From: Massalongia carnosa
Lineage: Eukaryota
DNA length: 64,000 bases
Assembly (NCBI GenBank): GCA_965645245.1
Contig: OZ287067.1
Location: forward strand, 3,596,001 to 3,660,000
Reading direction: 5' to 3'
Under the pieces are notes generated by a model. That model searched no databases. It saw nothing but the letters and a program-made list of their open reading frames with translations, and was not told where the DNA came from. Below are positions 6,321 to 64,000 of this stretch, one piece after another (position 1 is the stretch's first letter; every line of letters begins with the position of its first letter). Position numbers and translations under genes: made by a program.

Positions 6321-7611
6321 CTAGTAATTCCGCCATTGCCTATCCCTCTGTCTGTCTTCTGGGTTAATGTTATGATAAGTATTCTTTATGTTCTGTCAGC
6401 TTGTACATCGCTATTGAAAGGATAGGTGATCCTTACAGTGATACTAGTCCCAGTTATCTTAACCCCTTCTATGGACGTACTATTTGCATGACCCATAATC
6501 ACACCTCGATTGTTATTGATTTTGTCCCTAAAGTTAACATCGCCCATACGAACCGAATGTTTCTGTTGATTTTCAGCTAACTTCAAGCGCGCGAAAGAGA
6601 TGTCAGACCTGGCGATCCTCTCCAGATCCCTTGGATCGACTATCAAGATCCGATATCCATTGAACCAACTTTTGTGAAATTCTCTTGTATCTCTCTCGGT
6701 CTTCATCCTCAAACTTGCACATATCAACATGGTTCGCCTGGATCGACTGTGGATCGATACCAGGCAGTCAAGCCGATTCCTTGGGCACGATAAATCCTAT
6801 CTTCGTCCCTCCCTTGTACATAGCATACTGTTCAAAGAAGCAAGCTACTTCCACAAACTCTCTTGATTCTGAACGATCCCGTGCTTTCAGAAATTTCTGA
6901 AAGGCCTCGTTAACGCTGATGAGCTTTGCCGAACGCTCTTCAAGATCCTTTGTATCCTGCTTATGCGTGGTGCTTATCCAGCCCAGTATCTGTAGAGCCC
7001 TGCTTCCCCATTTTGCTTTTGACGATCCCTCAAAGGGCGTTCCAAGGAAGACGACTCCAATCGTTCTCTCTACGAGGGAAGTGCTAGCAATGTCGGTACC
7101 ATTATGCCTTGACAACGCATTGGCGCACACGAGACCCCCTAGGCTGTGCGAGACGAAAATAATCGGCCGTTCAGCCTGGACATAGACATCCTATTAGCAT
7201 ATTTCTGGTGGAAAGGGTAGGGGTGCGCCGATTCCTACAGTTTTGGTTTTCTCGCGAAGACCGATTAGGCTCTGGAACATTGCAGTCGCGTGATCATCAA
7301 TAGTCAAATGCTCCGGGATGAATTTCGGTCCAACAAACGGATAGAAGTGAGCAAAGTCTGCATTGTACCCAAAAGAAAGGATGCGAGCTGTTGGGCAGGC
7401 TTGAGGTAAGAGATCTTGCGGCCACAACAGCGATCTATCTCGACCCTCCCATGTCCAAGTTTTCACTCTGTCGCCGCCGAGCCCGTGGACGAAGACAATA
7501 CTGTTTGGTCAGTACAAAGCAACCCGGACGAGAAATGACATCTGGTGCGTACTCTATATTCGCCTCTGGAGAATCAAAGAGGGGTTCGCCTAATCCGTAC
7601 GGTTCGGCCAT
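6321..7611 (-). pseudogene. SesB-like alpha/beta-hydrolase (lipase-like) effector with C-terminal candidate amyloid motif; one in-frame TGA
   Basis: Spliced model with introns 7501-7552, 7176-7238, 6563-6608 and probably 6384-6436: MAEPYGL...DIVFVHGLGG...WPQDLLP...RILSFGYNA...RPIIFVSHSLGGLV (nucleophile elbow)...FLGTPFEGS...ACFFEQ...VPKESA*LPG...NHVDMCKF. Premature TGA at 6768-6770. Confidence 0.85.
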
Positions 7612-7821
7612 GCTGGCGTTGTCATCGCAATACTACAGAGGGGTCGTGCTTCAAATTTAGCACTACAGTACTAGGCCAAAAGTCTGCGGCCCCGCACCCC
7701 ACCAACATTTCAATCATTCTATTCAATCAACAATCAACCACGTCACGATTGCTGAAATGTCTTGAAACTTTACATAATGATTACATACATACTAAACACG
7801 AATTCCCCCAAAAATTGATTT

Positions 7822-8367
7822 TTAATATTTAGTATACCATCCTTCCGACGCTATACACGCTTTTATCCTCCTATTCATGCTCTCTATTAACCTCCTCATC
7901 ATTTTCACATCTATCAACGTCCAGGCTTCTTCTAACGCTTTCCAAAGTACCTCAAGAACAGTTTCATCACTGCCGCTCACCAAATCTATGTTCGGGTTGA
8001 CTTGATAGACGAGCTTTTTGAGCACATACCAAACGTGCTCGATAGGATTTAAATCAGATGAATAGGGGGGCCAATCGATGACCTCTATGCCGTTCTCATT
8101 GAACCATTCCATCACCTTTTTAGCCTTATGTATAGGTGCGTTATCCTGCATGATAATGAGGCCCGGTTGCCAAATTCCAAGCAGATTATCGTTCAATAAT
8201 TCCATATATGAGTTCGCCGAGTACCCCATCTTCTTCGCAGCAAATCACGAGCCAATTTGTAAAGATCTGACCTGTCATCTCCCCAAAAAGCTGCCCAGAC
8301 CATGACACTGACTCCTTTGCCTTTGGGGACAGGTTGTATCATCTCTTTATTCCATTTTTCTTTCGGC
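7822..8367 (-). pseudogene. Tc1-like DDE transposase, C-terminal part
   Basis: MQDNAPIH...WPPYSSDLNPIEHVW...GWYTKY. Continues the N-terminal half across the Gypsy TSD. Frameshift near 8280. Confidence 0.9.
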
Positions 8368-8545
8368 AATCTTGTGAGGGATAAAACGAGTTCACTTTCA
8401 ATAGCCTAGTTCTACACCAAAATCTTCAGACGAAGTCTAAAAGCTTTACTCGGGCGGAGTTCTATATAACCCCTGAAAAGTCGGTTCCTCGGCACATTAC
8501 CTAATCGATGCTAGTCTGATGTCAGGTGACCTCAGGACCCTGACA

Positions 8546-11500
8546 CTACCCCTCCTCTGAGACCGCGGCTCCGGACGTCGATGGTTGACTGTTATTCATG
8601 AATAGGACATCCTTTGGGGCGTTGGGTTTTCCTTTATTGTCTGTATGAAATTTTCTGATTTCTTCTTTGGCGCGAATGAAATCAGTCCATGGCTGCCAAG
8701 GTGGGTTTGCGTTCCAGTCATCCCATGAGCCGATATAGGTTGCTTTATACTGAGTGCCGTATTTCTTAGTTTCACGGCAGTCGACGATTTCGAGGACTTC
8801 ATATTCTTCATGAGGACTGGATTCGGCGTCTTCTTGAATCAGTATCGGGGGACCCGGTTCAATAAGTTGACCGGGGAATGGGTTCGTAGGAGCCAGATGA
8901 AGTTTCCATGGATGAAATATGGGTGTGAGCCCCACTCTTTTCAAGTGTTCGGGAATTTCCAATTCATAGGCCTTGTTATCTATGTTTCGGATGATTTTCC
9001 ATGGCCCCGCGTTTTTGGAACTCAGGGAGCGACTCTGCTTGTCGACGGAGAAATCTTTGGTGTTGACATATACCATGTCTCCTATCTTGTAGTCTGGATG
9101 TGGGGCCCGCGACTCATTGGCATATCTCATCTGATCTGCCTGTGCCCAGGTTAGGTGCTCGATAAGCCATTTGGTCATGGCTTCTTGTCGGGCGGTTATT
9201 TTGTCTGCCGACATCAGTTCCGCGCGTCCGGTGACATTTGAGTCAAAAGGCTGAGGCGGCTCCGAGCCACTACGAGGGTGATAACCGTGATCAGCGAAGA
9301 AGGGGGACATTCCGGTTGAAGCGTTCGTATGATTATTGACTGCAAATTCGGCATCTGGTAAGTAGTCCACCCAGTCGTCTTGAGCATGTCTGACGTATGC
9401 TCTCAGGTAGTTCTTCATAACCTTATTCGCATTTTCGGTTTGACCATCTGTTTCTGGATGATGCGCGGAGGACGGTTTCGATTTGACTCCTAATCGCTGA
9501 CAAATTCGCTTCCACAGATGGGCTGTCAATTGCGTCCCGCGATCGTGGACGATGGAGTTTGGCAAGCCGTATGTTGAAAAGACCCGACGTTTGAGGACTT
9601 CTAGTACGTCCTTCGTGCCTATATCCACCATAGGTTCGTACAACCTACGTTTGGTCAATCTGTCCACGATAACCAAGATATTTTCGTACGTCCGGCCCCG
9701 TCTGTGACATTTGGGCAGTTTGACTACAAAGTCCAGAGATAAGTCTGTCCATTTTCTTTGAGGTATGGGTAGTGGGGCTAATAGTCCCTGTTTATGATCG
9801 TTGTACGCCTTGGACCTTCGGCATGTAGAGCAGTTAGTAGCGTATCTTCGACAATCATCCTTCATGGACATCCAGAAATAGTTCTCCAGCATTTTGGCAT
9901 ACATGCCTCGATACCCGGGGTGTCCTTGCATCGGGGGATTATGATGATCCGATAAAAGACGCAGCTTCAGCTTGTCGAAATTCGGAATGAAGAGGCGTGT
10001 TTTGAAGTATAGTCTTTCGTGAAGGACTTCCAAGTCACCCATCACCAGTCTCAGCCCGTTGCTTAGAATTTTATCGGGCAATTTCTTCAGATTTTCAAAC
10101 TTAGCCTTCATGACTTCCTGAATCATTGCGTCTTCTTGATATGCCTCCGCTAAAAGATTTTCTAATAATTCATCAGGCTTTTCTGCATCCGAATCATCAT
10201 TCGAATTGATTGTGAACTCCTCTACCGTCAAGTCCTCTACTTCCTCGTCCCTGATTTGATCGGATGAGTCAGTAGTAATGTTGTCTTCAACCCGTTCTCG
10301 ATTGGCCATGGATCTGGTTGTCACGTACAGCTTCAGGTCCTGTTTCACTTCATCGTCCAGCTGATTTTCTTTTAGCAGCACCTGATATTGATATCTGGTG
10401 CGATCATCCTCCGCGTCCATCGGCAGATCTTGCTCTCTTCTGGTGAGGGCGTCCGGTTTGCCCCCTTGCTTGCCTGGTCTATACATAATGCGAAAATTAT
10501 ATTCCGCCAGCATCTCAGCCCAACGCACTTGACGGCGATTTAGTTGTTTCAAAGTCATGAAGGTCTCCAGATTCTTATGATCTGAGTAGACCTTTGTTGA
10601 TTGCTCCACTCCCGCTAGCTCCGGTCTCCAGATGACGAAACTTTCTACGATGGCTAGGAGTTCTTTATCGTAGATCTCATAATTGCATTCGGCGGGGCTC
10701 ATCTTCTTCGAGAAATAAGCCACGGGTTTCAGAACGCCTTCATGCATCTGAGAGAGTATCCCCGATACTACGAAGTCAGATGCGTCTGTCTCCACCCAGG
10801 TCTCTAGCCTTGGGTCGTAATGAGCAAGAATCGGCGCAGAGGTAAAAGAAATCTTCATGTCTTCGAAAGCTTGCTGACATTCAGTGGTCCACACGAAGTC
10901 TTGATACTTGGTGCGTCTCTTTCCGCCTTTCGTGACATATTGCTCTCCGCGGGTTAGCTCGGTCAGACACTTCACCTTTTCGGAGAATCGCTCAATGAAG
11001 CGACGATAGAAGTTAGCGAATCCAAGAAAGGACTGCACCTCTTTTACTGACGCGGGCGTCTTCCATTCTAGTATGGCCGTCACCTTTTCTGGGTCCATTC
11101 TAACGCCATTCACCCCCACGAACATTCCGAGGTACTTGACTTCGGAGACAGATAATTCACACTTGTCTATGTCCAGTTGAAGTCCTCTTTCTTTCAGACG
11201 ACGAAGTACCTTCAGTACCTGCTCGATGTGCTCCGTTTCTGTTTCACTGAACACCAGTACGTCGTCCAGATAGGCGGTGACGAAATAATCTAAGTATTCT
11301 CGCAGGGAGTTATTGATATAGCTCTGAAGTGTTGATGGAGCGTTGCATAGTCCGAAGGGCATCACAAGATATTCAAATTGACCGTATCGAGTATTGAACG
11401 CTGTGAGCCACTCTTGTCCCTCTTTAATCCTCATCCTATTGAATGCATGAATGACGTCCAATTTAGTAAACCACTTTGCTTTGGCGAGTTTCGCCAATGT

Positions 11501-12617
11501 CTCGCTGATCAATGGAATGGGGTATCGACTTTTCTCCGTGATATTATTCAGATCTCGATAATCTACGCAAAAGCGAAGACCCCCGCCTGGTTTCCTGACC
11601 AATAGTACCGGCGCGGCCGCCTTTGACGAGCTCGGACGAATAAACCCTTTTGCTAAGTGCTCATCTAGATATTTTCTTACCGCGGTCAATTCCTGTTCGG
11701 ACATGGGCCGATAATTCTTGATGAACGGGGGCTCGATCCCGGGCATCAAATTGATTTCGTGATCCTCTTTTCGATGAGGTGCCAACTCGTCTGCCTTAGC
11801 CCTCATGAAGACTTCAATCTCGCCATGATAGGCCTCGGGTACTCGTTTTTTCAATTCTTCCAGAGTATATTCGACTTTGTCTTTCATGAACTTCTCATGA
11901 TCGTCGCTGGTGACTGCGTTGATACTTGAAGCAGTCAGAAGCTTCTTCTCGTACCTATCTAACTTCTTGTTGAGCTTTTCCCTCGGATAGAAACAGTAAG
12001 TCTGATGACCCGATCTTCGAAGAAGTTTCATAAATTGCTTCGGGGTGAGGGACTGAATATCGAAATTTTCAAAGGCCTCGTTCTTTGCTGAGGCAGTCGT
12101 TTCCTTCTCCAAGATTGTGGATTCAAATTTTGAGACTGAATGAGATCGAGGTGCGCATCCCTTACTGACGCACCGATTGGAGAACGTCATGGTGCGTTCA
12201 ACCCAATCAATGTGAGGGTTATGCTCCTGCAGCCATCCATCACCGATGATCAAGGTATGATTACCTATGTCGGCCAGATAGCAGAATAACTTTTCCTCAT
12301 GATCTCCGATTCTGACGGGAACGATAACGGCCTTATCAATGATTTGATGGACTTTTCCATCCCCAAGTTCCAGTCTGACCCTGTCTCTTTTTTTTTAGTC
12401 TAATGGTCTCTAGTTTTCTTTTGCGCGCAAAGGATTCATGAAGAAATTGAGCTTCACTTCCGTTATCGATCATCAACTGATTTTCATTAGAGGCTATACT
12501 ACATCTAAATAAAAGATGCTTGCCCGGAACGAGATGATCGACAGAAAGAACAGATGCTCTAACAACCCTTAATGAAAATTCTCGACATTCCTGATGGCGA
12601 CTATCATCAGGAATCAT
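8546..12617 (-). CDS. pol: Gypsy Pol (protease, RT, RNase H, integrase, chromodomain)
   Basis: LMIDNGSE protease motif, YLDD RT, ETDASD RNase H, HHCC/DDE integrase, C-terminal EYEVLEIVD..YKATY..W chromodomain. One frameshift in a poly-A run near 12390. Confidence 0.93.
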
Positions 12618-14206
12618 TCTTTTTCCGAGTCCTCGGACTCGGATGAGTCTTCTCGAATGGCGACTCTACTGAGATTCACTGCTTGCCTAATGCAACAGGG
12701 GTCTCGGCCCCTATGCCCTGATCCTCTGCACGACCAACATCGGCCCTGTCGTGACAGAGTCTCTCGTTCCCCGTCCTCCAACTTGGGCGGGTGAAGCGTC
12801 CCCTCGTACCAAGCTCCTACCCATCCTTCCGGTTTGGTCGAGACCTGTCCGAATTTCGAGTTCGGGTTGGCGGAGATGGCGGAGTTGGTCGTAGTCGCTT
12901 TTGGTTTGACTGTGATCGAGGTACTGGAGGTGGCGGTCGTGGTTTTGTTTAAACCACGACCGACGGAAGAAGAAGGAGAAGTCGTCGTTTTCGCGGGCTT
13001 CTGAGATTCCGACTTCGCGTACTTCTGATTCATCTCCTTTCTTCCCTGTTCGATTTTTCTGGCTTCATGCAAGAGGGTTTCTAGACTGATAAAGTCCCGT
13101 CCCAATAGAGACAGCGCGATGTTCGGCCACAGGGTGTCCTTGAACGTCTCAATTCTCTCATCCGCGGGGGTTTTTGCACGTTGCCAGAGTTTGAACATTC
13201 GATGATAGTATTCAGTCACCGTTTCATCTTTGTTCATGCTTATTTCTTTCAATTCCTTCTTCGCGTCCTTTGTCAAATATGCTATCCCGAGATAGCTCTC
13301 AATTTCCTTGAAGAACGTATTCAAAGAGAGAGTGGGACCGGCATCCACTACCCAGGTGTGTATGGCGTCGAAAATGGGATCCTTCATCTGCGATAAGGCG
13401 TAGTCGATTTTCAACTCCTCACTAGTGTACATTGGGGAGTCGGTTATGATTTTTCTTTCCACCGTAAACGCCCATGCACTATAGGCGTCTGAGTTGGAAC
13501 CGTCGAGGGCCTCCTTCGGGTTGGTGCCTTTGGGTCGATAATTGCTTAAGGGGGCAGCGACGGCGGATTGATCTTCAGTTTGACCAGTCGATGAGGTCGA
13601 CGTCTGAGTAGCTTCGCGAGCTAGACGTTTCATCTCTGATATTTCACGAATGAGGTCCGAGTTTTCCGCTTTGACCTTCTGAGTCTCCAATTTTTCAGCC
13701 GCGATATCCTCCTCAAATACTAGTCTCTCGTGATCCCAGCTCTTTATCATTCGGGTCCATTCTGCCTGTAGACCTTTTAGATCTTTGTTTCTTTTTTTCA
13801 AGTCCTGATATTTCTCGATCAAGACCTCATGTTGTAGGAGCGTGCCGGCTAGAACAGTGTACCATATGTCGCCGTCTCCCTTTAGGACGAGGGCCCTTCT
13901 CAACTCTTCTCGATTGGCCACCTTGATGATCATAGCTGATTTCGACGGATTGCTTTCCGTCAGACTTCGATAAATGGCATAATTGCTTATGTCGATTTTC
14001 GGTTCTGAGGTCGGGGCCTCGATCTTCGGTTCCCTGCCTTTGTCTTTGTTTGTCGGCAAAACAGTGTCATTTCCCACCTCTTCGTCGGCGGGTTCATATT
14101 CGCCTGGTATGCTCTGTGTCGATTGTCGCGACATGGAGCGAGCTCTAGTGTTGAAGGCCGGCCCCGAGGGAGCGACATCTCTGCTGGATGATTCTAATGA
14201 GTTCAT
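12614..14206 (-). CDS. gag: Gypsy Gag
   Basis: 530-aa ORF upstream of pol with coiled coil, capsid-like core and CWSCRGSGH..C zinc knuckle. Confidence 0.9.
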   Translation of the reverse strand: MNSLESSSRDVAPSGPAFNTRARSMSRQSTQSIPGEYEPADEEVGNDTVLPTNKDKGREPKIEAPTSEPKIDISNYAIYRSLTESNPSKSAMIIKVANREELRRALVLKGDGDIWYTVLAGTLLQHEVLIEKYQDLKKRNKDLKGLQAEWTRMIKSWDHERLVFEEDIAAEKLETQKVKAENSDLIREISEMKRLAREATQTSTSSTGQTEDQSAVAAPLSNYRPKGTNPKEALDGSNSDAYSAWAFTVERKIITDSPMYTSEELKIDYALSQMKDPIFDAIHTWVVDAGPTLSLNTFFKEIESYLGIAYLTKDAKKELKEISMNKDETVTEYYHRMFKLWQRAKTPADERIETFKDTLWPNIALSLLGRDFISLETLLHEARKIEQGRKEMNQKYAKSESQKPAKTTTSPSSSVGRGLNKTTTATSSTSITVKPKATTTNSAISANPNSKFGQVSTKPEGWVGAWYEGTLHPPKLEDGERETLSRQGRCWSCRGSGHRGRDPCCIRQAVNLSRVAIREDSSESEDSEKE

Positions 14207-14345
14207 GTTTTCTGATTAGCCTAATGATTCTGATTGTAGGTCTGAAGATTGTGTGAGGGATAAAACGAGTTCAATTTCAATAGCCTAGTTCTACACCAAA
14301 ATCTTCAGACGAAGTCTAAAAGCTTTACTCGGGCGGAGTTCTATA

Positions 14346-17300
14346 CGAGAAGACTCGGGACAGTCCCCCCCCCACCGTCCCCCCAGCGAAAATCATTGCA
14401 ACTTAGGACTAGCTACAAGCCACCTCCCCATACTAAATATGTACACGTCCACCATCTTTCCGCAAGCTTCCTCTAGCTGATTTAGCTTAGCCCCGCATTC
14501 TGAAAAATCCTCATCTATTCATACTACTACTATTACTACTACTCCTACCACTCATTGCGATGATCTCAATTCTGAAAATGCATCACTCAATTGCGAAACA
14601 TTATCCTTTCTAGGCTTCATAGTCTTAGCAACCTTTCTTGCAGCTGCGTTTTTCCTCTCCTCAGCCCTTGCTTGTTTGGCCGCTTGGTCGGCCCTCTGCT
14701 GAGACTCCAACTCCAACTGAGCCTTCGATTTTTTGGCTACCACACCCCGTGACCCTCGTGTTGTTGTTGCAGACGATGTGGATGGTAGCTGGCTAGCGCG
14801 GATGTTTTTTTGACTGAGGCTATAAAGGGAAGGAGCTTTTGGAGAGGGAACCGTTTGGGAAAGAGCCTTTTGGCTATGTTTCGCCAGCACTTCATCAATA
14901 TCTTCAAATGAATCGGAAGAAGATGCCGGGGATGGAGGGATAAAATCATCATTCTCATTCAGAGAGAGTGGAGGATCAGGGGTAGGCTGAGTTGCTATAT
15001 ATTGCAGGGCATCGTCGTCAGATACGATGATAGCATCTCCGGAATCTATACCGAATATTAGCCGCGCTACATCGATCGATTTGCTGATATCGTGGGTTTT
15101 TTATCATCAATCATACCCTTGTCTTCACCGCCTGCCCGCAATTCATCCTCATGCCTTCTTCTCCTCCCTTCTTCAATCGAGTCCTTACGTTTAGCACGTC
15201 GCTGCTTAGCTTCATGTGCCTCAGCTGCCTCACGGCCAGTGTAAGCCCGCCGGCGATTCCCACTCTTTTTATACATGAGGTTGTCCTTCGGTCGGATTTC
15301 GTCGGGGAAAGTTGTAGGGATAAGTGGCCTCGCCAGCTCCTTATCCTGCCATTTTTTATTGAAAATAGCAGTGAATTTGGCGAATTCACGAGCGTATCCC
15401 TCCCTTCTATGCACATTTTCTATTGATTTATGAAAATCAATTGATTGATGTGCGGCCGCATGCAGCAAATCAACACCCCCGCGACGAAATCTATCCCCAG
15501 TATTATTGTCAACTGCCTTCTCGATTTCCTCCTCCGGCTCAGATTCTTGACTTTGTTGAGCATTCCCCCCCTCATCCGCCTCCTCATCCTGCTCTTCTGT
15601 GGTCTTCCTGTGAGCTGCTCTCCGAAACATCTCAGCGAAATTTATGGTGGGGTCGAAAACCATGCTCCACGAGACCACAAAAGGCGGGCCATCGAAAAAC
15701 CAGCGGGGATGAATGAGGGAGATAGGTATGGGGATAACATCAATGACGCAACGATACAACCAGCATCTGCACGGAAGACCGTATCGTGGAGGCAAATCAC
15801 AATCATACATACAATCCTCACCGGTTGGTTCGATTAATGCAGTCCCTTCAACTCCAAAAGAAACCTGTTGATTGAAATCTTCGGCTAAAATTTTAGCTGC
15901 ATCCAACTCTCTAGATATGAGGTCAATAGCATGATGAGTTATTAAACCTATAAGGTCTTTGAACGCACTTCTATCCATTAGCCGGGGGTTGTTGATTCGT
16001 TGATGATTGGTTGATATTTCGTAGTCAACCTGAACCCTTTGCACTGTTTCGCATATTTTCCGCACCGAGTCCTTAATAGGTGTATGCCTATTTGTCACAT
16101 TCTTTACCAACGGATGCAAACCTTCCACCCTTTGTGTGCTATGTGCACCTAAATTAGGGAACTTTCTGGTGTATGCGGAACCAAACTGACACTCCTGACG
16201 TTGATAATAGCTAGTAAAATACTCCTGGAAATAGGAGTGAGTTAGCCCTTATTAACGTTTTTTGATGGCTTCATACCTTTTCTGAAGCATGAAGCTTCAA
16301 TATCAACGCGTTTCTCTTCTCATCCAGCTGTTCAACGGTAGGAGTTTTAATCCACTCCCATATCAATTCATGCAGTTCTTTCCGTACTTCTAAAGGATAT
16401 GAACCCGCCCTGATCAGGCGTTTCTTGATTGCCTCCGCTGCGTGCCACGTGCATAATTGCAACACACAATCAGGGTCGGTTTCGTGTATTGATTGGGCGA
16501 CTTGCCATGCAACGGTCATTGCTGCATCCGGGTTTATTTCCTTAGCCCGTTTTTTATGCATCGCTGCAGTCAATCCAGCGGCGAAGTCTCCGAGGATGAC
16601 CCTAGGACCAGGACATGTATCATGAAAAAAGAGATCTTTCATACAATCAAATAGAAACGTAAAGCACTCAGCCGATTCAGAAGTTATATAACAATAGGCC
16701 GCGGGGAAAGTCTGATTTGTGTTGGTGATGCCAACCAATACCGATAGAGGTAAGTTCAACTGATTTGTATTGAACGTAGCATCCGTTTCTATCAAAATCC
16801 ACTGACGAATCGTCTAGTCAGTCGGATCTGTTCAGAGTTACAGAAAAAGAAATGTTCAACAACACGTCTTCGGGGAGTATTTTTTTCAACGAGATATTTC
16901 TCCAAAGTCCGTACATGAAACCCTTCTTCTTCTAGAAATCCAAGTGCATAGATCAACTCTTCTTCAGGTGTATCTTTGCCCTGGGATCGAGCCAGGTTGT
17001 AATAGTCCTTCTTCGAAAGGCGCAGGCCAGTAATTCCCAAAACGCGAGATGCTTGACCGTATCTAGTTGATGCATCACGGAGACTTTTTGCTTGATCTAG
17101 GGCAGTTGCTCGATCGAGGTCTTGGCTACGATGCTCTTTGAAACCGAAGGGGTCTGTAGCCATCTCGTGATTGTGATCAGGATTGGTGATGATTAATCTC
17201 CACGATTCGTCTTTGTTTTGCTTCAGTCTTAGTCGATATTTGCACTCGTTGAACGAGACCTTCGTGTTTTTTCGTACGCGGTCCTTCTCCTCTAGCTTTC

Positions 17301-17765
17301 TAGTGTTTCTTTCTCTTTTGTGATGACGGGTGCAATCTAGTATAACGAGATGATTCTTCTTATCATTAGTCTCTGTGACCAATGCAAAGCCTTGAGTAAA
17401 GGCATAATTCTGAAGGCGGGTTTTTCCCTCCTCCCAGGAGATAAAGATTTCACTCTCACTCGGAGGAAGACGATGAGAAGACGGTAAACTCGCTATAGCC
17501 CTTTGCAAACGTGCATCCAGGGACGTTGATGTGAGGGCCATAGCAAAGAAAAAGATTAGGGAGAGAAGAAGTGCGGTCTACCTATCATAGTAATAAATTT
17601 ATACAGAGGGTTGGCTGCCTATACCTATAATATTATTAATAGAGACGGTGAACGAGGTATATGCACCTAATTATTTAGTATGGGGAGGTGGCTTGTAGCT
17701 AGTCCTAATTTGGAATGATTTTCGCTGGGGGGACGGTGGGGGGGGGACTGTCCCGAGTCTTCTCG
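14346..17765 (-). mobile_element. Mutator-like (MULE) DNA transposon inserted in the Gypsy 5' LTR
   Basis: ~95-bp TIRs starting CGAGAAGACTCGGGACAGTCCC. 9-bp TSD AGTTCTATA at 14337-45 and 17766-74. Confidence 0.93.
14552..17541 (-). pseudogene. MULE transposase (FAR1-like N-terminus, DDE core, SWIM-like Cys motif)
   Basis: C..HNH FAR1-type domain, ETDATFNTN, GDFAAG, QLCTWH, STQRVEG and YGLPCRC. Frameshift at ~16793, intron ~16228-16275. Confidence 0.85.
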
Positions 17766-17858
17766 AGTTCTATATAACCCCTGAAAAGTCGGTTCCTCGG
17801 CACATTACCTAATCGATGCTAGTCTGATGTCAGGTGACCTCAGGACCCTGACAAATCT

Positions 17859-18392
17859 GAACACCCACTGACGCTGTTTTCCTGACCCCTTTTCCACCGA
17901 GCACTCATCTGACCATATAACTCTTGACCACTGCTCAAAAGTCCACTCACGCCGCAGCAAGCACCAATCCAATCGTTTCTTGGCCACCTCAGGCGTCAAT
18001 AAAGGTCGTTTTTTAACCACCCAGTTGGTTAAACCATACAGTTTGAGTGCCCGATAAATAGTCGTACGACTGCAGCCGAGCCCCACTTCTAGTTTGATTT
18101 GTGCATAAGTGATTCGTGGATTGATTCGTGCATGCTTGATGGTATAACGTCGATCGCGTTCTGACAGCACTTCAGGCCGTCCAGAACGTGATTTAGACAC
18201 GCCGTCGTTGCGAATTGAGTGCTTCTGAATGGTGCTCTGCACGGTCGATTTAGTGAAATTAAGAGTCTTCCCAATCTCGGTCGGTGTGTGCCCCAACGCC
18301 TGGGCCCCAACAATCATACCACGTTGATATGGCATCAATTCAGTGTTACGAGGCCGATTACCACTTATGGGGGTCAAAGAAGCACGAAGCAT
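17859..18392 (-). pseudogene. Tc1-like transposase, N-terminal part
   Basis: Paired-like HTHs with RSGRP, KRPLL and VIWSDEC. Cut at the Gypsy TSD. Confidence 0.9.
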
Positions 18393-18779
18393 GGTGAAAT
18401 GATGAGGTGGAAGATGGGGGGTTGATGAGTTGAAAACGCGAAATCACGAAAATTACGGGTTGGGCCGCAGACTTTTGGCACGGGACTGTATAACTTATGC
18501 GAGATAATTGTAATAACGCCTGCATGGAGAGACCAGGCTCTTCAGCACGTGCATAGCCTTGGCTCTATTAGCCATCTATCCCACATGACGGCGGGGGGCC
18601 TCCATCGGCGAGTCCGTGCCTATATTTATACTTAGAGATGAACAGTGCTTTTAGAAAGTCTTGGGCGTCGAGTTTCTGGCCGAGCCTAGGTGCGGTCCTG
18701 AGCACGGTAAAGGTAATGGTTTTCAAGTCTTATTCAATATAGCTCCGAGCTCTAATGTCTACAATCTTCCGACGCAGCA

Positions 18780-21508
18780 ATGGCCGGTAACACGCCAGTA
18801 GTCTCTACAGGCACGAAGGATTTTGGCACGATTTCTGGCAACCAAGGCGTTGTGATCGGTGACGTCTCAGGCTATGCGAAAGTGATTGGTTTGCGTCCTG
18901 TTCACATCGATATCGATCTTATGCTAAATCCTGATTAGGCTCTCAGACAAACAATATTGTTCAATATCCAGGCAAGTCGCCATTCGCAATGATATAGCGT
19001 CCTGTGAGCCAAGGCTGATAGCATTCTGCGTTGGTAGAAAGACCCGATACCCCACCAAGCCCATCATCTGCTGTTCCTTTCCGCCGCGACCCTGATTTCG
19101 TCGATCGCGGAACGCTACTTGATCAGATCCACGAAAAGTGCTCGGCGCCAGCATCAAGGGTAGCGCTTGTCGGCCTAGGCGGCGTTGGGTAAGCCAAAGG
19201 GCCTCAGGCTAGTTCTAATAGCTTACTTTCGCAAAGAAAGTCGCAGCTTGCCATCGAGTACTGCTATCGAATCAGAGAGCAGTTGCCGACGACGTGGGTG
19301 TTCTGGATAGACGCTAGTAATGCAGCCCGTATCGAGCAAGGTTATCGGGATGTTGCAGAGCAAGTCAAGATTCGTGGCAGGGAGGACCCAAAGGCGGACA
19401 TATTCCGGCTAGTTGACAAGTGGTTACGCGACGAGAAGAACGGAAAGTGGGCTCTGGTCCTCGACAATGCCGACGAAGCTACTGTGCTTTTCGAAACTCT
19501 TGTCACGGGCCAGAAGGCGCAGGCCAGCGGGTCTAGCGGCGGGCCCACGCAATCACTGTTAGCATATCTACCTCAGAGTCGAAACGGCTCGATTCTCATC
19601 ACCTCCCGGACTAAAAGCGTGGCATTGCGGCTAGCAGAAGAAAGCGACATAATAGCGGTTGAGCCGATGGACGATACACATGCGCTAACGCTCCTTGAAA
19701 AGAAGCTGGGAGAACAGATGGACAGAGATGACACTGCTGAGCTAGCAGCAGCACTCGAATTCATGCCGCTTGCCATCGTTCAAGCGGCCGCATACATTCG
19801 ACAAAGAGTACCAAGATATTCTGTTCGACAGTACATAAAAGAGTTCTATAAAAATGATAAAAGAAAGACCAGTCTGTTGAATCACGAAGCGGGACATCTT
19901 CGCAGGGACCTGGAGGCTAAAAATTCAATCATTATAACCTGGCAAATATCGTTTGATCATATTCAACAGATCAAGCCTTCGGCAGCTAATCTGCTGTCGC
20001 TTATGAGCTTTTTCGATCGACAGGGAATTCCTGAGGCATTACTCAAGACACAAAACGAGGCAGGAAATGAAAATACGAGAGAAAATGCTGGAAATGACGA
20101 AGATGATGACCACGAAGACGATAGCGATAAGAATACCGTATCCGATTCCAGCGTCGACGAGTTTGAAGCCGACATACTTGTCTTGAGAAACTTCTCGTTC
20201 ATCACCATCAGCATGAATGAAACAACCTTTGAGATGCACGGGCTAGTGCAGCTAGCGATCAGAAAGTGGCTAGAAGCATCCAATCAGCTCGAAAGATGGA
20301 AGCAGCAGTACATCAAGAATCTCAGTATAGTATTTCCGACGGGAAATTACGAGAATTGGACAAAGTGTCAAGCGCTTTTTCCTCACGCAAAGTCGGCAGA
20401 AGCGCAGGAGCCAGCTGTCGAAAGCTCATTACAAGATTGGGCCTTGATACTATATCACGCTGCATGGTATGCGTGGGAGAAAGGGAGTTACGCTGAAGCA
20501 GCGACAATGGCCCTAAAAGCAACAAGAACCAGGCAAAAAGCGTTTGGTCCAGAGGATGAAGAGACATTGAATAGTATGGCTATGCTAGCATCGGCATACG
20601 CGGGACAAGGACGATGGACGAAGGCCGAAGAGCTGGAGGTGCAAGTGATGGAGACGAGTGCGAGGGTGCTAGGGGCGGAGCATCCAAATACGCTGCCTAG
20701 CATGGCCAATCTTGCGTCGACGTACAGGGATCAAAGACGATGGACGGAGGCCGAAGAGCTGGAGGTGCAAGTGATGGAGACAAGTACGAGGGTGCTAGGG
20801 GCGGAGCATCCTTCCACGCTGACTAGCATGGCCAATCTTGCGTCGACGTATTGGAATCAAGGACGATGGATGGAGGCCGAAGAGCTGGATGTGCAAGTGA
20901 TGGAGACGAGAAAGAGGGTGCTAGGGGCGGAGCATCCAGACACGCTGACTAGCATGGCCAATCTTGCGTCGACGTACAGGGATCAAGGACGATGGACGGA
21001 GGCCGAAGAGCTGCAGGTGCAATAGATAGAGACGAGTGCGAGGGTGCTAGGGGCGGAGCATCCTTCCACGCTAACTAGCATGGCCAATCTTTAGTTGACG
21101 TATTGGAATCAAGGACGATGGACGGAGGCCGAAGAGCTGCAGGTGCAAGAGATAGAGACGAGTGCGAGGGTGCTAGGGGCGGAGCATCCTTCCACGCTGA
21201 CTAGCATGGCTAATCTTGCGTCGACGTATTGGAACCAAGGACGATGGATGGAGGCCGAAGAGCTGGATGTGCAAGTGATGGAGACGAGAAAGAGGGTGCT
21301 AGGGGCGGAGCATCCAGACACGCTGACCAGCATGAATAACCTTGCACTCACGTGGAAGTCTCAAGACCGCAATGATGAGGCTCTCTCACTGCTAAAGGAA
21401 TGTTGTCAGCTACGAAAACACAAGCTGGGTCCTCAACATCCTGATACAGAGTCTTCCCTTAAGCATCTCAATGAGTGGCAGATGGAGAGTTTATCATTGG
21501 AGTCTTAA
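18780..21508 (+). CDS. NLR: N-terminal candidate amyloid motif + NB-ARC-type NTPase + TPR array; two TAG stops in one TPR unit (truncated or pseudogene)
   Basis: Spliced model with introns 18889-18938, 18972-19037 (GC donor) and 19189-19236: MAGNTPVVSTGTKDFGTISGNQGVVIGDVSGYAKVIGSQTNNIVQYPERPDTPP..VPFRRDPDFVDR..GLGGVGKSQLA (Walker A), LVLDNAD (Walker B), MPLAIVQAA, MHGLVQ, then TPRs. TAG at 21023-25 and 21092-94. Confidence 0.9.
20540..21460 (+). repeat. 126-bp tandem TPR-coding repeats (~7 units, high internal identity)
   Basis: Recurrent GTGCTAGGGGCGGAGCATCC...AGCATGGCCAATCTTGCGTCGACGTA at 126-bp period. Confidence 0.95.
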
Positions 21509-21675: not shown

Positions 21676-22128
21676 CTAGGTTTTACACTCGCCCGCGTTA
21701 GCAGAGAGGCCTAAGCGGTGCGCTCTAACTGTTCCAAATAGCAGGAAGTCGTCAAACCTTCTACCTTGAGCATTCACCTCCGCACCCTTGTCCAGCAACA
21801 TCTCCAAAACCTTCTCGTGGCCTAGTTCTGCTGCCCAAATTAACGCTGTCCGCCAGTGCTGATCTTGTGCCTCCAGATCTACCAATTTAGCATCCTCGAT
21901 CATTCTCAGGATGACTTCGCGTTCATTGAACGCTGCAAGCCTGTTGTCATTCATGACCGGCTGATCTTCATATCGTGATAAAGCCCGCCACAGTAAGGGA
22001 AATCATAGTCGAGGTTAATTATCTTCTCCTCGGCTTAGTTCACGGTCCCTTGACATATCTGCATCTTTCAACCCGAAAGTAGCATAAGTAGCATTTCGGA
22101 AATGGGCCGTCTGATGTTCAGAACCTGA
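21676..22128 (-). pseudogene. Ankyrin-repeat gene relic truncated by a Copia LTR
   Basis: DLEAQDQHWRTALIWAAELGHEKVLEMLLDKGAEVNAQG. Confidence 0.7.
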
Positions 22129-25100
22129 TGTTATCAAAAGGCAGTATAGTAATATATAGTCAATAGAGGATAGAACGCTTGCTTTTGTTTTATATAGTTG
22201 GAATAGCTAGATTTATAGACAATGTACGGTATGCTAGTATTAGACTAGCGATACGTCTAGCCATTAGCGTGCGCCATACTCGTGCGGTAGAAGGTGAGTG
22301 CGGCTGAAATGAAGTAGCCTGATTTGTACATTCTAACACTCCCACTCAGGCACTGAAATAGCACTCCCAGATGATAAAGAGAAAATCAATAACTCCCACA
22401 TACTCCAGTATAATATCATGCTTCCTAGTGGATCACCTGCAGGTGAGTTAGTGTACTCCGCAGGCTAATGCTGCTGGTGATGTACCAAAACACCCCCGCA
22501 GGCTCAGCTGTGGGTGATACTTTTTTTTGGGGGGGTTAAGGTCGGATTTTTACGACAAAGGGCTTCTGGTTTACTTTAAGCCTAAAGCCCTTCGAAAGAC
22601 AACAAATTTATCGTTTGGTAGGGCCTTAATTAGGCCGACAGCCACCTGCTCTTCGGTAGGAACATAGCAAAATTCCACTGATTTGTCTTCGATCTTCTCT
22701 CTTTGGTAGTGCCATTGGATGTCGATATGCTTGGTCCGCGCGTGTGCCTGGGGGTTTTGGCCAAAGCCATTGCTCCTTGATTGTCGCAGTGAATGATGAT
22801 AGCGTTTAGGGCGAAAGATATAGGCAAGTAGGCAAGGGCTACAGAGGTGCTCTGGGTTTGGATAGAGTTATTCCCAAGGACTTGAGGTGTTGAGAGTTGG
22901 TCGAGAAGACTAGACAACCAGGCGGCTTCCTTGGTGGCTTGGGTCTGACCCATGTACTCGACTTCGCATGAAGATAGGGCTACGGTCGGTTGTCGTTTGG
23001 AAGACCAGCTAATAGCGCCACTACCAACATTAAACACGAAGCCAGAGGTAGTAGACCTTCGGGTATGATGATCTCCGGCCCAATCCGCGTCAGTGTAACA
23101 GTTCAAGGCTTATAGGCGATCTTTGTATGTTAACTGCAACGGAAGAGTGCCCTTGATGTATCGAAAGATGCGTTTGACTGCCTTCCAGTGCGTGTCGGTC
23201 GGGTTCGAGGCATAGCGGCTGACCACCGGTACGATGTAGGCTAAGTCAAGTCTGGTGCCTAGCATAGCATACATGAGAGAGCCCACCGCTGATTGGTAGC
23301 GGAGGCGAGAGTCATCTGTGGCCTGATGGCCCTCTGGTGCAGCCTCCAGTCACCCATCCATCGGGGTAGCCACGGGTTAAGTGTCCCACATGCCATGGTC
23401 GCGTAGTACTTTTTCCAGATAGGCCTGCCGAGCAAGGCGAAGAATCCTGTTGGCCCGATCCCGAGTTATCGTCATGCCCAGGTAGTAATTGACAGGGCCT
23501 AAATTAACCATCGAGAACTCGTCGCTCAGCAGTTTCTTGACACGTTGTATCTCGGAAGAAGAAGGGCCAGTGATGATTAAATCATCGACATAAATGGCTA
23601 CGATAACCCCTTTTTTAACGAAAACGCTAAGGTCGGCATTGACTGGAACGAAGTCATGAGACTTAAAAAAAATAGTGATCGTTTCATACGAGATTCTAGA
23701 CGACTGTTTCAGGCCATAAAGAGCTTTCTTCAACTTGCAAACTCTCGTTGACCCGTCATCCAGACCGGTTGGTTGCTCCACGTAGATTTCCTCGTCCACC
23801 CTTCCGTACAAGAAGGCTGTTTTTACGTCCATTTGGTGAATTTCCCAGTCATTGGCTGCAGCGATAGCGAAGATGGCTATATAGCTCATTGGCTTCACTA
23901 CTGAAGCAAAAGTCTCATTGTAGTCAATGCCTTCACGTTGTTCAAAGCCTCTAACCACCCATCGAGTCTTGTAACGAAGAATCTCGCCAGCCGGGCCTCG
24001 TTTGCTTTTATAAACCCATTTGCCTCGCCGGGCTTTGCGGTCCGAGGGCAGGGAGGTGAGGATCCAGGTATCATTTTCGTTGATAGAGTCGATTTCTTCC
24101 TGCATTGCCCTTCGCCAATCCTTTTCCTCCCGACTGTCTACGGCCTGTTTATAGGATTTAGGCTTGTATGGCTCCGGGTCATTGGCTCGAGCAAGAAGGG
24201 CCAAAAAAGCTAGTGGGTCAGGCGAGGGGGCACGAAGTTCTGGGTGCTTAGAGAGAATATCTGCCTGGGACCGAGGCTCAATGGGCCGTTGGTTTGCCAA
24301 TGCCTCTTGTCTTGTCTAGCGTTTGGTGGGAGAGGTCCAGTGGGATTTGATTCTATGGATTCATGAGCGTCGACTAAGTCCGTATGAGGGGCGTCCGTTT
24401 GATGGGTAATTTTTTTGCTTTCTCGTGGGCAGTCCTGACTGTCCAACATGTAGGGCTCTTTTAGTTTGAGAGAATGATAAGGAAGGAGGAGTTGGGGGAT
24501 TGTTATCTATCCACTGAACATTGGAATAACGCATGACCGCGCCCCGTGGATTTATCATTCGATAGATGTGATCGCCTTCGTATCCTACTACAGTACATTT
24601 GGTGGCTCGTTCCTGAAATTTCTTCTATCCGGTGGAGGGCTTGCGATTTTGCGCATAGCCAGTCTGTCCTATTATCTACCCTTAGATGTCCTAGTTCTGG
24701 TAGGCTGCCGGTGTGAGACTCGTATGGGGTGATGGAGCGTCCCGCAGTTGGTTGTCGATTTCGTAGGTAGTTGGCGGTGAGAACCATTTCAGCCCAATAT
24801 TTGATGTCGAGTTTAGCGCCTTCTCGCATGGTGCTGGCTAACTTGTGAAGCGTTTGACCTAGGCGCTCGGCTGTCCCGTTCATGGGTGGATTTCCCGGTA
24901 CCGTAGGCTCCCACTGAATGCCATGCTCGTTTATGAAATCCTCGAAGTCTTTGGAGTCATACTCACCCCCGTAGTCCGATCGCAAGCGCTTAATTCGTTT
25001 GTCCCCATATTCGTTTTGCTTCTTGTAGTTTTTAAAGCCTTGAAGGACTCCGCTTTTGACGCGCAGTAAAGTGACATGAGACCATTTATCGAAATCGCAA

Positions 25101-26305
25101 AGAAAAGTTACCAAATATTTGGCGCCATTCAAGGCTTCTGGGAAAGGTCCTGGACATCGCTGTGAGTTAAGTCCAGCGGGTGCTTGCCTGGTTGGATGGG
25201 GGCCCGATATGGTTCTACTTGGGACTGAGCGATGGCGCACGGAGGACAGGCGTCTTGGGGCGGGGGCTTGGTGAGGTCCATTCCTTTTGACATGCCAGCG
25301 AGCTTGAGAATGTTTTGATTTCCAAGATAGCCTAAACGAGCGTGCTACATTTTTATCGCCTCGCTATTAATTGCAGCGAGAGCGAGGGCGGCTTCAGAGA
25401 CGTTCCACATGTTCAGGATATACAGATTGTTGTCCTGGCGGCGAGCAGTGATACCATAGTTCCCGATTTCAATTCCCTCTGGTACGATCTTCAGGGGACA
25501 TCCATCTCGTTGTAATTGTCCTTGGGAAATGAGATTTAGGCCTCCGTCCGGAACGTATAACACATCGAAAAGAGGGAACTCCCGAAGACCCTCGTTACCG
25601 GCACACCGCAACATGATGTTACCTATTCCTTTGGGAATTAATACTCCTCCAATGCCTTGAATTGGTGGGCAATCGGATGTCTTGAATGAGGTGAAGATGG
25701 AGCGATCGTGGGTAATATGTTGCCTAGTTCCAGAGTCACAGATCCAGTGCTTAGATATTTTGGTTATATCCGCGGTGGCCATGTAGGCGCAGAAGGCTCC
25801 TTTGGTTGAGTCATTATTTCCGGTTGGCTTTTGACTTTGACCTTGACTTTTGGAACTCCTACGACGCTTATAGGACTTACGCCGTGAGTCTTGGTTAACG
25901 AGGTGTGGATATTTTTCATGACACTCGCTCTCTCTACGTGATAGTCCTTTCGGCAGTGGTTGCAGTACTTGATGGTCTTGGTGATGATTCGAGAATGGGC
26001 TGTTCCAGGTTGAGCTCCTGCTTGGGTTTGAGCGTTTGAAGCAGCTGCCTTTGCGGTTACGGTCTTATCGTTGGACTTGCTTGGGTTGGTCACCGTGTTT
26101 TGGAAATGCTGCTTAGCCTGACTTAATGTGTGCTTGGATTCACCCATTTCATTGAAAGGATCATGATCCTGAGCGTATCGTTCGAAATAGCTGTTGTATT
26201 CGAAGCCTAAATTGGTATGAAAGCGATAGATAAGCCAGTTTTCGTCCAGGCTTAGCTTGCTTGAGAAGATGCGAAGCTTATTGACAGTGGCGCGAAATTG
26301 GGTAA
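22129..26305 (-). mobile_element. Degenerate Ty1/Copia retrotransposon, 5'-truncated
   Basis: 3' LTR 22129-22338 (TG..CA) next to a GAGTGGGAG PPT. Frameshifted RNase H (YTDADWAG), RT (YVDD), integrase, protease (WICDSG) and gag fragments. Confidence 0.9.
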
Positions 26306-26953
26306 CAGGGCTGCTGCAATCCGATAGGATACACCCGTTTGCAAAATGGTGTGCCGAACTTTGAACCCCGAAACTGCGCGGTAAAAAAAAAAAAATAAGC
26401 GACAGAATTGGACCACACACCAGAATTTGGTGCAGTAGCTAATAGCCCTACTCCCCTTCACACTGCCCTTTGCAGTCTATAGGATAGTATGGTTAATGAT
26501 ATCCTTTTGATTGTCGTTTGTATGAACTTTCAACGTAGTTATTCCAGTCATCATGCCTCGAAAACAGCCTCCTAAACAGCCTTCAAAACAGCCTTCAAAA
26601 CAGCCCCCCAAACAGCCCTCCAAACAATCATGAAAACGGGCATCTACTACTGAATTACCTAGAAACTCAGCACCTTCATTTAAACAAAGGCTTAGAATCA
26701 ATCCTCCTAGATCATCATCACCAGTTTTAAATGCCCGTATTCCTGATCTTCCATCACGTCCACCTTTACCATCTCCTCCAGCTTCTCCTTCGGCTTCGCC
26801 TTTACCTCCTCATCGTTTCCTCCCCCCCGAGCCAAGGAATGTTCGTCCGACTCGCAGTAGTGCGCCTTCTCCTTGTCTTTCTGAGCTATCTAGTGCTCCT
26901 GAACCTGAGCCTGAGCCTGAGCCCGAGCCTGTTTGTTTACTCTGATTTACAAA
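26306..26953 (+). mobile_element. 5' end of a probable DNA transposon (hAT-like?) with a Pro/Lys/Gln-rich ORF start
   Basis: Abruptly replaces Copia gag with CAGGGCTGCTGCAATCC. The ATG at ~26553 gives MPRKQPPKQPSKQPSKQPPKQPSKQS* (12-bp repeats). No second TIR seen. Confidence 0.35.
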
Positions 26954-27250
26954 TATCAAGCTGGTTATCGCTTAGATATGCGTAAGCTTTCCAGCTTATT
27001 TGTTAGATAGGTTTACGTTCTAAAAGAGACTCATTTTGGATTTGATAAATTGATCTGGTTTATTTAGGATGGTTGTTGTTGATAGAAATCATCTCTAGCT
27101 AAATATCTATTTTACCTTATCCCATCACCTTTTGTGTGTACTCGGTAGCCAGCCATTCACTAAGTACAACACTTGCTAACCGAGTGACACTTCTATTAGT
27201 GGTGATATTGGCAGGCCACCTACCAATTAGTGTGGTCTAATCGGTTAACA
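26954..27250. repeat. Solo LTR (~297 bp) without TSD
   Basis: Near-identical to 46069-46365, ends TTAACA. Flanks ACAAA and GTTCC do not match. Confidence 0.8.
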
Positions 27251-63700: not shown

Positions 63701-64000
63701 TCATCCATCCAAGTTTGTCAAGCGCAGCAGCCCCCGTTCTTCTAGTTAGAAAACCAGGGGGTGGTTTAAGATTTTGCGTAGATTATAGAGCCTTAAACTC
63801 CATCACGATCAAGAACAGGTACCCAATACCGTTGATAAATGAAACTTTGGGAAAACTATCACAAGCCAAGAAGTTCACAAAACCGGATGTGATTACCGCT
63901 TTCAATCGTATGAGAATGAAGGAAGGCCACGAATGGCTCACGGCTTTCAATTCTAGATATGGTCGGTTCGAATATCTGGTAATGCCATTCGGTCTCTGCA
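60702..64000 (+). mobile_element. Degenerate Ty3/Gypsy retrotransposon related to the 8373-17853 element, running off the window
   Basis: Putative LTR ending CCTTACA (60883) then CAAT, as in the first element. Gag 61097-62741 shares GPAFNTRARS. LLIDNGSE protease and RT follow, with many stops and frameshifts. Confidence 0.88.

Follow-up and report, generated by a model that had tools for sequence, protein, structure and literature searches.

A candidate amyloid-signalling pair of a SesB-like hydrolase and an NB-ARC/TPR NLR, parted by nested transposons, in Massalongia carnosa

A divergent pair of genes in Massalongia carnosa appears to encode an effector and its receptor. The first gene specifies a SesB-like alpha/beta hydrolase and the second a NOD-like receptor (NLR) with NB-ARC and TPR domains, and a related motif is found at the extreme C-terminus of the hydrolase and at the N-terminus of the NLR. 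The pair lies within 64,000 nucleotides of the forward strand of contig OZ287067.1 (positions 3,596,001 to 3,660,000; GenBank assembly GCA_965645245.1), hereafter the window. Both genes had been proposed in a first-pass annotation made from the sequence alone, and their identities and positions are borne out by gene models, Pfam matches and homologues. Coordinates are collected in Table 1.

The hydrolase gene comprises five predicted exons. All four of its introns have GT-AG ends, and boxes resembling branch sites (CTGAC or CTAAT) are present in three of them. The core of the C-terminal motif occupies exon 4 and the motif continues into exon 5. Splice sites and translation give the same protein end across exons 4 and 5 as had been quoted in the first-pass annotation, with the reading frame running on for 11 codons beyond '...NINPE', where that annotation had stopped. 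In comparison with locus L001 from a metagenome, whose hydrolase is 79% identical, exons 1-4 align free of gaps, the gaps falling in introns 1-3 and in the short exon 5. The exon-3 piece gives weak Pfam matches to Hydrolase_4 (E 0.0018), DUF676 (E 0.0028) and Abhydrolase_6 (E 0.014). Within a 16-member alignment made up of 15 homologues and this exon-3 piece, Abhydrolase_6 is matched by all members and DUF676 by 15. In total 68 homologues were collected, two of which are named by their sources 'SesB protein' and 'SesB-related regulatory protein'. The sequence H-S-L-G-G, corresponding to the G-x-S-x-G nucleophile elbow, is invariant in the family and the His is near-invariant. An AlphaFold2 model of the homologue P0003, which is 82% identical to the window hydrolase over the matched part, has a confident alpha/beta hydrolase domain spanning residues 1-289, and the nearest solved folds include monoglyceride lipases. 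The modelled structure thus confirms the alpha/beta hydrolase fold of the family.

The NLR gene has four predicted exons, with the Walker A motif located at the junction of exons 3 and 4. The Pfam matches are to TPR_10 (E 5.9e-51), DUF7779 (E 3.3e-8) and NB-ARC (E 3.5e-4), the last of these being weak (20.3 bits versus the Pfam cut-off of 23.5); many of the 3,428 relatives found carry PF00931, and the NLRs P0069, P0070, P0072, P0073 and P0088 among them are 81-92% identical. An effector domain at the N-terminus was not matched in Pfam at E<=1, in agreement with the first-pass annotation, and only the motif, within a stretch of some 47 residues, precedes the NB-ARC linker. This motif is encoded by two small exons, for which splice sites and translation reproduce the protein start previously quoted. 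Exons 1 and 2 are supported by three lines of evidence. Firstly, an annotated orthologue from Lobaria immixta, P0142, is 72% identical in the NLR body and 86% identical over 36 residues at the N-terminus. Secondly, the same exons are present in L001, with the same ATG, the same end to exon 1 and conserved splice sites. Thirdly, the 35 differences between the window and L001 in exon 1 are distributed 9/7/19 over codon positions 1/2/3 with no indel, unlike the intergenic DNA of the two loci, which is full of indels. Micro-exon 2 is 33 nt in the window and 30 nt in L001. Intron 2 begins with the donor GCAAGT in the window versus GTAAGT in L001; the window intron may be of a tolerated GC-AG type, or its donor may be a further lesion. 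A 192-residue gene model, P0219, joins a degenerate C-terminal part of a hydrolase and its tail to a pre-NB-ARC linker, hinting at another locus where hydrolase and NLR touch, or at a rearranged locus.

The two genes are separated by a nest of three transposons totalling 10.8 kb. The outermost is a Tc1/mariner element with imperfect inverted repeats of 29 nt, each flanked by TA; its transposase is split by the insertion of a Ty3/gypsy retrotransposon, one long terminal repeat (LTR) of which has in turn received a Mutator-like element (MULE). The gag and pol frames of the gypsy element are open and its two LTR copies differ at just one of 183 aligned bases, so that the nest is young. Repeats and domains place the boundaries of the nest where the first-pass annotation had drawn them, and excising 7666-18488 leaves 54 + 291 bases, about 345 bp, between two divergent ATGs. 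That the genes stood head to head before the transposable elements (TEs) arrived had also been proposed and is upheld by two observations, the layout of L001 and an empty-site joint. The latter, 7663 to 18489 with a 2-base overlap, is present in contigs of all four public sequencing runs that were compared with the region. These runs represent relatives, the best of them sharing 0.63 of sampled words, and one is labelled a lichen metagenome. A TE-free head-to-head form therefore exists in relatives, with the caveats that the shorter flanks of the four joints measure 63, 38, 28 and 20 letters (at least 31 in two joints only) and that extra letters between the two sides are possible. A second joint, 8367 to 17854 with a 5-base overlap, occurs in contigs of all four runs and represents Tc1 copies free of the gypsy element. 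This indicates that the Tc1 family is multi-copy and that the gypsy insertion is specific to the copy in the window. One of the runs has no contigs over most of the gypsy element, an observation on which no conclusion is based.

Table 1. Features of the hydrolase-NLR locus, in window coordinates
Feature	Position	Strand	Evidence or remark
SesB-like alpha/beta hydrolase gene	6321-7611	minus	predicted, five exons, 363 codons
Hydrolase exons	7611-7553, 7500-7239, 7190-6609, 6562-6437, 6383-6321	minus	splice sites and translation
Hydrolase exon 4, core of tail motif, 42 codons	6437-6562	minus	foreign-tail HMM, E 8.8e-18
In-frame TGA, hydrolase exon 3	6770-6768	minus	translation; upstream of catalytic-His region and tail
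Divergent promoter region, left part	7612-7665 (54 bp including one TA)		contig joint 7663/18489
Tc1/mariner element with TA target duplication	7666-18488	minus	inverted repeats 7664-7692, 18462-18490
Tc1 transposase, DDE_3 part	7825-8244	minus	DDE_3, E 4.1e-16
Ty3/gypsy LTR retrotransposon within Tc1	~8373-17853	minus	RVT_1, RNase H, integrase, gag
Gypsy LTRs	8373-8545; 14252-14345 + 17765-17853	minus	direct repeats, 99% and 100%
MULE within one gypsy LTR	14346-17765	minus	MULE, E 1.9e-15; FAR1/AFT
MULE inverted repeats, 94 nt	14346-14439, 17672-17765	minus	10-bp duplication: shared decamer at direct-repeat ends
Tc1 transposase, HTH part	17808-18443	minus	HTH_Tnp_Tc3_2, E 2.1e-15
Divergent promoter region, right part	18489-18779 (291 bp)		contig joint
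NB-ARC/TPR NLR gene	18780-21508	plus	predicted, four exons
NLR exon 1, N-terminal motif, 36 codons + 1 base	18780-18888 (109 nt)	plus	foreign-tail HMM
NLR exon 2, end of motif	18939-18971 (33 nt)	plus	splice sites and translation
NLR intron 2, GC-AG	18972-19037	plus	splice sites read
NLR exon 3, linker and Walker A	19038-19188 (151 nt)	plus	translation
NLR exon 4: NB-ARC, DUF7779, 42-residue TPR_10 units	19237-21508	plus	Pfam
Two in-frame TAGs in one NLR TPR unit (21005-21130)	21023-21025, 21092-21094	plus	translation

The tail of the hydrolase belongs to a family. A segment of some 40 residues is found at the extreme C-terminus of 37 of the 68 homologues, which span many orders of Pezizomycotina; the hidden Markov model (HMM) used was built from 34 foreign tails, with that of the window excluded, so that only three of the 37 count as independent matches. 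Many of the remaining gene models end precisely at the intron which precedes the tail exon, and the models P0002, P0009, P0015, P0017 and P0018 end in '...SQV', a read-through into this intron; such read-through accounts for the absence of the tail from many annotated proteins. The consensus is approximately [HI]-[SG]-[VI]-x-M-G-D-V-N-[YF]-x-x-x-I-x-N-N-x-G-V-V-M-G-H-A-x-S-T-A-x-D-G-V-R-I-T-G-S, in which the middle glycine is invariant and four further positions are near-invariant glycine or G/A. The core, N-x-G-[VI]-[VI]-x-G, stands in a segment rich in G, N, V, I and T. Compared with background residue frequencies for proteins, N is enriched 2.7-fold, G 2.1-fold and V 1.6-fold in the tails, I and T are also enriched, and L (0.19x), P (0.25x) and K (0.48x) are depleted. 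This bias resembles that reported for amyloid signalling motifs in the accessible part of a preprint (bioRxiv 10.1101/2020.01.06.895854). AlphaFold2 assigns the tail of P0003 (residues 290-354) a predicted local distance difference test score of 30-62 and no secondary structure, beside the well-folded domain. A profile of five tails, searched against 1.84 billion representative proteins, gave 37 matches at E<=1e-3, all of them hydrolase tails except P0222 and P0223. The same search returned no NLR N-terminus, as expected of a cross-match worth just 12-18 bits. None of five fused hydrolase-NACHT-ANK proteins carries the tail.

The likeness of the two termini, a central claim of the first-pass annotation, is evident when the NLR is compared with the family of tails. 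The N-terminus of the window NLR scores 66 against the best of the 34 foreign tails (P0016), whilst the best-of-34 score reached at most 61 when the sequence was shuffled 2,000 times (p<=5e-4). When the foreign-tail HMM was run over 1,984 six-frame open reading frames (ORFs) of the 64-kb window, NLR exon 1 ranked second (E 1.2e-4), behind the hydrolase tail itself (E 8.8e-18) and ahead of the next ORF at E 0.26. Among 121 NLR sequences the window NLR was first with this model (E 7.3e-4), followed by P0121 from Lindgomyces (E 2.2e-3). Within individual pairs, the two sides agree at the level of the subfamily only, with N-Y-G on both sides in loci L004 and L005, and N-[RQC]-G on both sides in the window and L001.

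The arrangement recurs elsewhere. A metagenome scan with the hydrolase alignment recovered 36 loci. In L001, a divergent motif exon lies about 280 bp upstream of the hydrolase (ATG to ATG), with both micro-exons matching those of the window; the tail HMM gives this exon an E-value of 0.0032 in a search over the six-frame ORFs of all 36 loci. The hydrolase of L005 is more distant and its tail is a variant; upstream of the gene, in divergent orientation, is a NACHT/ANK NLR. Here the N-terminal ORF of the NLR matches its own tail in 16 of 41 aligned columns (shuffle p 0.0014), and its two best matches among 38 tails are the tails of L004 and L005. The architecture of L004 is that of L005, again with a NACHT/ANK NLR, and only an N-Y-G-I-V stretch is shared, so that L004 is suggestive only as a further case. 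The first-pass annotation had proposed linkage in relatives as a check on the pair. Adjacency was found in L001 and L005 and, weakly, in L004; it does not extend to Lindgomyces.

A comparison with known fungal amyloid signalling systems, drawing for the published ones on the accessible portions of the papers cited, places the locus close to several of them and within none. At E<=1, neither terminus nor any of the 16 members of the hydrolase alignment matches PF17046, PF17106, PF11558 or PF17108, and the two motif ORFs match no Pfam family whatever. These four models represent, respectively, PP (under the name Ses_B), NACHT_sigma and, in the last two cases, HET-s (PMC12261475). The first-pass annotation had inferred a receptor-effector pair of this general kind; a divergent pair with a shared motif, recurring in L001 and L005, is what was found, but the motif is not that of sigma, PP or HET-s.

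The closest parallel is the PP module PNT1/HELLP/SBP of Chaetomium globosum, where an effector-less NLR and its SesB-like neighbour, the lipase SBP, carry the same short motif, the former at its N-terminus and the latter at its C-terminus (PMC5485727). The core spacing N-x-G-x-x-x-G is common to PP and the window motif. Furthermore, 49 of the 120 listed NB-ARC/TPR relatives have a PP-type N-terminus on the same chassis (a pattern search matched 50, of which one, P0135, is spurious); since these relatives hold it in the same place, the window NLR can be regarded as the PP chassis with a different tag. The motifs themselves differ. PP is 17-23 residues long versus about 40 for the window motif, and the central Q of its N-x-G-x-Q-x-G-x-N is V or I in the window family (V in 19 and I in 7 of the 34 tails), which lacks the pseudo-palindrome. 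Profile-profile comparison (hhalign) of tails with PP N-termini sets N-N-x-G-V-V-x-G on N-x-G-x-Q-x-G over 21 columns, with a probability of 17% and P 0.0014. The motif is thus regarded as a separate family, possibly a descendant of PP and at most distantly related to it.

The sigma locus het-eN/sesA/sesB of Nectria haematococca is alike in its SesB effector, in the logic of tail matched to N-terminus and in a motif of about 40 residues (PMC3321046, PMC5485727). The sigma submotifs A (GxGxQFNxx) and B (GGTQNINT) and the three repeats, as given in the available text of PMC3321046, are not found in the hydrolase tails. The window pair differs also in having no adjoining sesA-type gene and in that its NLR is NB-ARC/TPR and not NACHT/ANK. 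NWD2/HET-S of Podospora anserina, the paradigm for the mechanism proposed below, likewise consists of adjacent genes with an NLR N-terminus matching an effector C-terminus, but its effector is a HeLo pore-former rather than a hydrolase and the window motif has no sequence relationship to that of HET-s, which is 21 residues long. Finally, there is a precedent for another fungal family of motifs linked to a single class of enzymatic effector and found via the paired termini of neighbouring genes, namely PUASM, the PNP_UDP-associated motif (Wojciechowski et al. 2022, PMC9815663). PUASM differs in its pattern (FxGxGxQxxGxGxF), its effector (PNP_UDP) and its NLRs (NACHT or NACHT/WD40).

Taken together, this evidence points to a two-gene NLR module in which an effector-less receptor with an N-terminal motif of about 45 residues is paired with a divergent SesB-like hydrolase bearing a related C-terminal tail, the two presumably communicating by amyloid templating, and which is being lost in this genome. 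This reading is a probable one, though well short of certain, and the amyloid fold, templating, activation and any cell-death output are proposed by analogy with NWD2/HET-S, PNT1/HELLP/SBP and HET-eN/SesA/SesB, as far as these are described in the accessible parts of PMC3321046, PMC5485727 and PMC9815663. Binding of a ligand, sensed by the TPR domain, would cause the NB-ARC domain to oligomerise. The N-terminal motifs, gathered in this way, would adopt a cross-beta (beta-arch) fold, and the resulting nucleus would template the same fold in the tail of the hydrolase, so that the lipase-like enzyme is clustered or activated. The unstructured tail, its composition and the tail-less fused proteins are all consistent with such a mechanism. 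In particular, the fused hydrolase-NACHT-ANK proteins fit the known alternative of an 'effector in cis' versus a 'motif in trans', as set out in the available text of PMC3321046.

A number of observations weigh against this interpretation. BLASTP of the two motif exons of the window gave no alignment at E<=100, and pairwise Smith-Waterman comparison of the window tail with the NLR N-terminus is weak in a composition-preserving shuffle (p=0.026), so that the shared motif is a family-level result. The closest annotated orthologue of the NLR, P0142, has an E-value of only 0.94 with the tail HMM. Across four loci, the NLR's own partner ranks 24, 10, 6 and 2 among 38 tails (24 in the window, 10 in L001); pair-specific co-variation is not seen in the window, and agreement appears to be at the level of the subfamily only. 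Beyond the window, just three motif-bearing N-termini of NB-ARC type were found among annotated or assembled sequences, those of P0142, P0121 and L001. When residues 1-46 of P0142 were used in a word-based search, P0142 alone was returned, and none of the 461 pattern matches from a metagenome scan with an alignment of three NLR N-termini was confirmed. In Lindgomyces ingoldianus the hydrolase with the tail (P0010) and the NLR with the motif (P0121) are on contigs of different length and hence unlinked, whilst in Phaeosphaeriaceae sp. PMI808 a tail-bearing hydrolase is possibly on one contig with an NLR whose N-terminus is of PP type. For L004 the match is marginal (p 0.049), and the shared N-Y-G-I-V stretch is not part of the best local alignment. 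Lastly, Q, typical of PP and sigma, is depleted in the tail (0.56x) and the motif contains charged residues. Complex prediction with three NLR exon 1 peptides and the tail gave a score of 0.02, which is no usable answer in either direction.

Some of these points would also be accounted for if the motif were shared without being an amyloid device. It could instead be a docking peptide acting by beta-strand addition, a tag for a third factor, or a leftover from the break-up of an ancestral fused hydrolase-NLR. We regard this as unlikely, although it retains a larger share of the probability than the other alternatives. The depletion of Q together with the charged residues, the lack of any match to the Pfam models of PP, sigma or HET-s, the existence of fused hydrolase-NACHT-ANK relatives and the lack of pair-specific co-variation in the window are all in its favour. 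Fission, on the other hand, would be expected to leave consecutive rather than similar sequence at the two ends, and the five fused proteins are without the motif. Moreover, the length of the motif, its bias towards G, N, V and I, its spaced invariant glycines, the disorder of the tail, the terminal position and the divergent neighbour match known amyloid signalling pairs as described in the accessible portions of PMC3321046 and PMC9815663.

The amyloid-signalling module we favour is probably decaying or non-functional in this strain, to judge from the reading frames. The first-pass annotation had overlooked a TGA in the hydrolase, two TAGs in the NLR and the GC donor. The grounds for reading the copy as one in decay are these three in-frame stops and the GC donor, together with the insertion of the TE nest into the promoter. 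The codon occupied by TGA is TGT (Cys) in L001 and L002, and the protein homologues read ESACLPG there; a product cut at this point would be without the catalytic-His region and the tail. Removal of the TGA by a 42-nt intron was considered and rejected, as it would remove a block conserved in all homologues. In the NLR, the TPR unit bearing the TAGs differs at five positions from the near-identical unit that follows it (from 21131), which has GAG and GCG at the two codons; three of the five differences, all transversions, create both TAGs. Repeat-induced point mutation as a source of the stops was likewise rejected, the changes being T-to-A, G-to-T and GC-to-TA, not C-to-T or G-to-A. The TAG-bearing unit is possibly an artefact of assembly in a tandem array.

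If so, and if the TGA also arose as an assembly or consensus error, the pair could be intact and working in the living strain; equally, truncated products might still act. Such an explanation is improbable. It gains from the fact that the reads compared come from relatives, the best run matching no more of the sampled words than the fraction given above, from the position of both TAGs in near-identical tandem units, which are error-prone in assemblies, and from the remaining exons, which are all open and conserved. Against it, the three stops are substitutions and not indels, the TGA deletes both the catalytic-His region and the tail, and a 10.8-kb nest in the promoter combined with a GC splice donor points towards decay. 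A chance resemblance between two G/N-rich low-complexity ends that are neighbours by accident is very improbable and already disfavoured since, despite the empty BLASTP result and the modest pairwise shuffle, NLR exon 1 is second among the 1,984 ORFs by foreign-tail HMM, the best-of-34 shuffle gives p<=5e-4, the layout recurs in L001 and L005, and each instance of the motif is located at an extreme terminus.

The families of fungal amyloid signalling motif on record number four or five, namely HRAM, sigma, PP and PUASM 1-2, and five is the count given in the available text of a 2025 paper (PMC12261475). A 2022 survey which included DUF676, PGAP1 and Abhydrolase_6 effectors lists, in its accessible portion, paired families of PP, sigma, HRAM and PUASM and one minor PNP_UDP motif only (PMC9815663). 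The peptide strings of the present motif were found in no paper searched, and neither they nor six accessions of tail-bearing hydrolases occur in the readable supplements of PMC9815663, whose FASTA and HMM files and two archive files were outside the search and may hold the motif under another label. The kind of system is thus well known, whilst the motif family and its hiding place in micro-exons appear to be new. The chances are about even that the tail constitutes a further, hitherto undescribed family of fungal NLR-associated amyloid signalling motifs: a relative of PP and RHIM that lacks the Q and has G-V-V-x-G as its hydrophobic core. On the effector side this family would be specific to SesB-like hydrolases, whilst receptors of both NB-ARC/TPR and NACHT/ANK type would use it; it would be widespread across Pezizomycotina and overlooked through micro-exons. 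Its having been overlooked, if this reading is true, would be explained by the location of the receptor copy in exons of 109 nt and 33 nt and of the effector copy in the last-but-one exon, which are often missed by gene callers.

Such a family, were it established, would be tied to the commonest class of enzymatic effector and would widen the known repertoire. It would also serve as a natural experiment on whether templating depends on the conserved Q found in PP/RHIM-type cores. Surveys of annotated proteins would under-count pairs of this kind, as their motifs are encoded in small exons at the gene ends. The locus itself shows a module probably in the course of loss to a polymorphic TE nest and nonsense mutations, in keeping with the birth-and-death turnover of fungal NLRs.

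The surroundings of the pair form an island in which NLRs and TEs are abundant. The NLR is immediately followed, on the other strand, by an ankyrin-repeat fragment (21676-22002, minus), probably a remnant of another NLR-like gene. A second NLR-type gene at 35077-38632 (plus) consists of an NPHP3_N (NACHT-type) ORF and, after it, an ORF of 981 residues that contains many ankyrin repeats together with a GPIID winged-helix domain, and a 417-residue ORF of highly regular WD40 repeats at 54675-55928 (minus) may represent the repeat portion of yet another NLR. A fragment of a fungal protein kinase is present at 27237-28055. Transposon pieces occur at 22630-26438 (minus), 29011-30090 (plus), 30744-31727 (plus), 45028-45816 (minus), 47953-51678 (plus) and 63301-63999 (plus); the kinds represented in this remainder of the window are copia-type elements (RVT_2, integrase, gag), Tc5/pogo DDE_1, another Tc1 DDE_3 and a further RVT_1 element.

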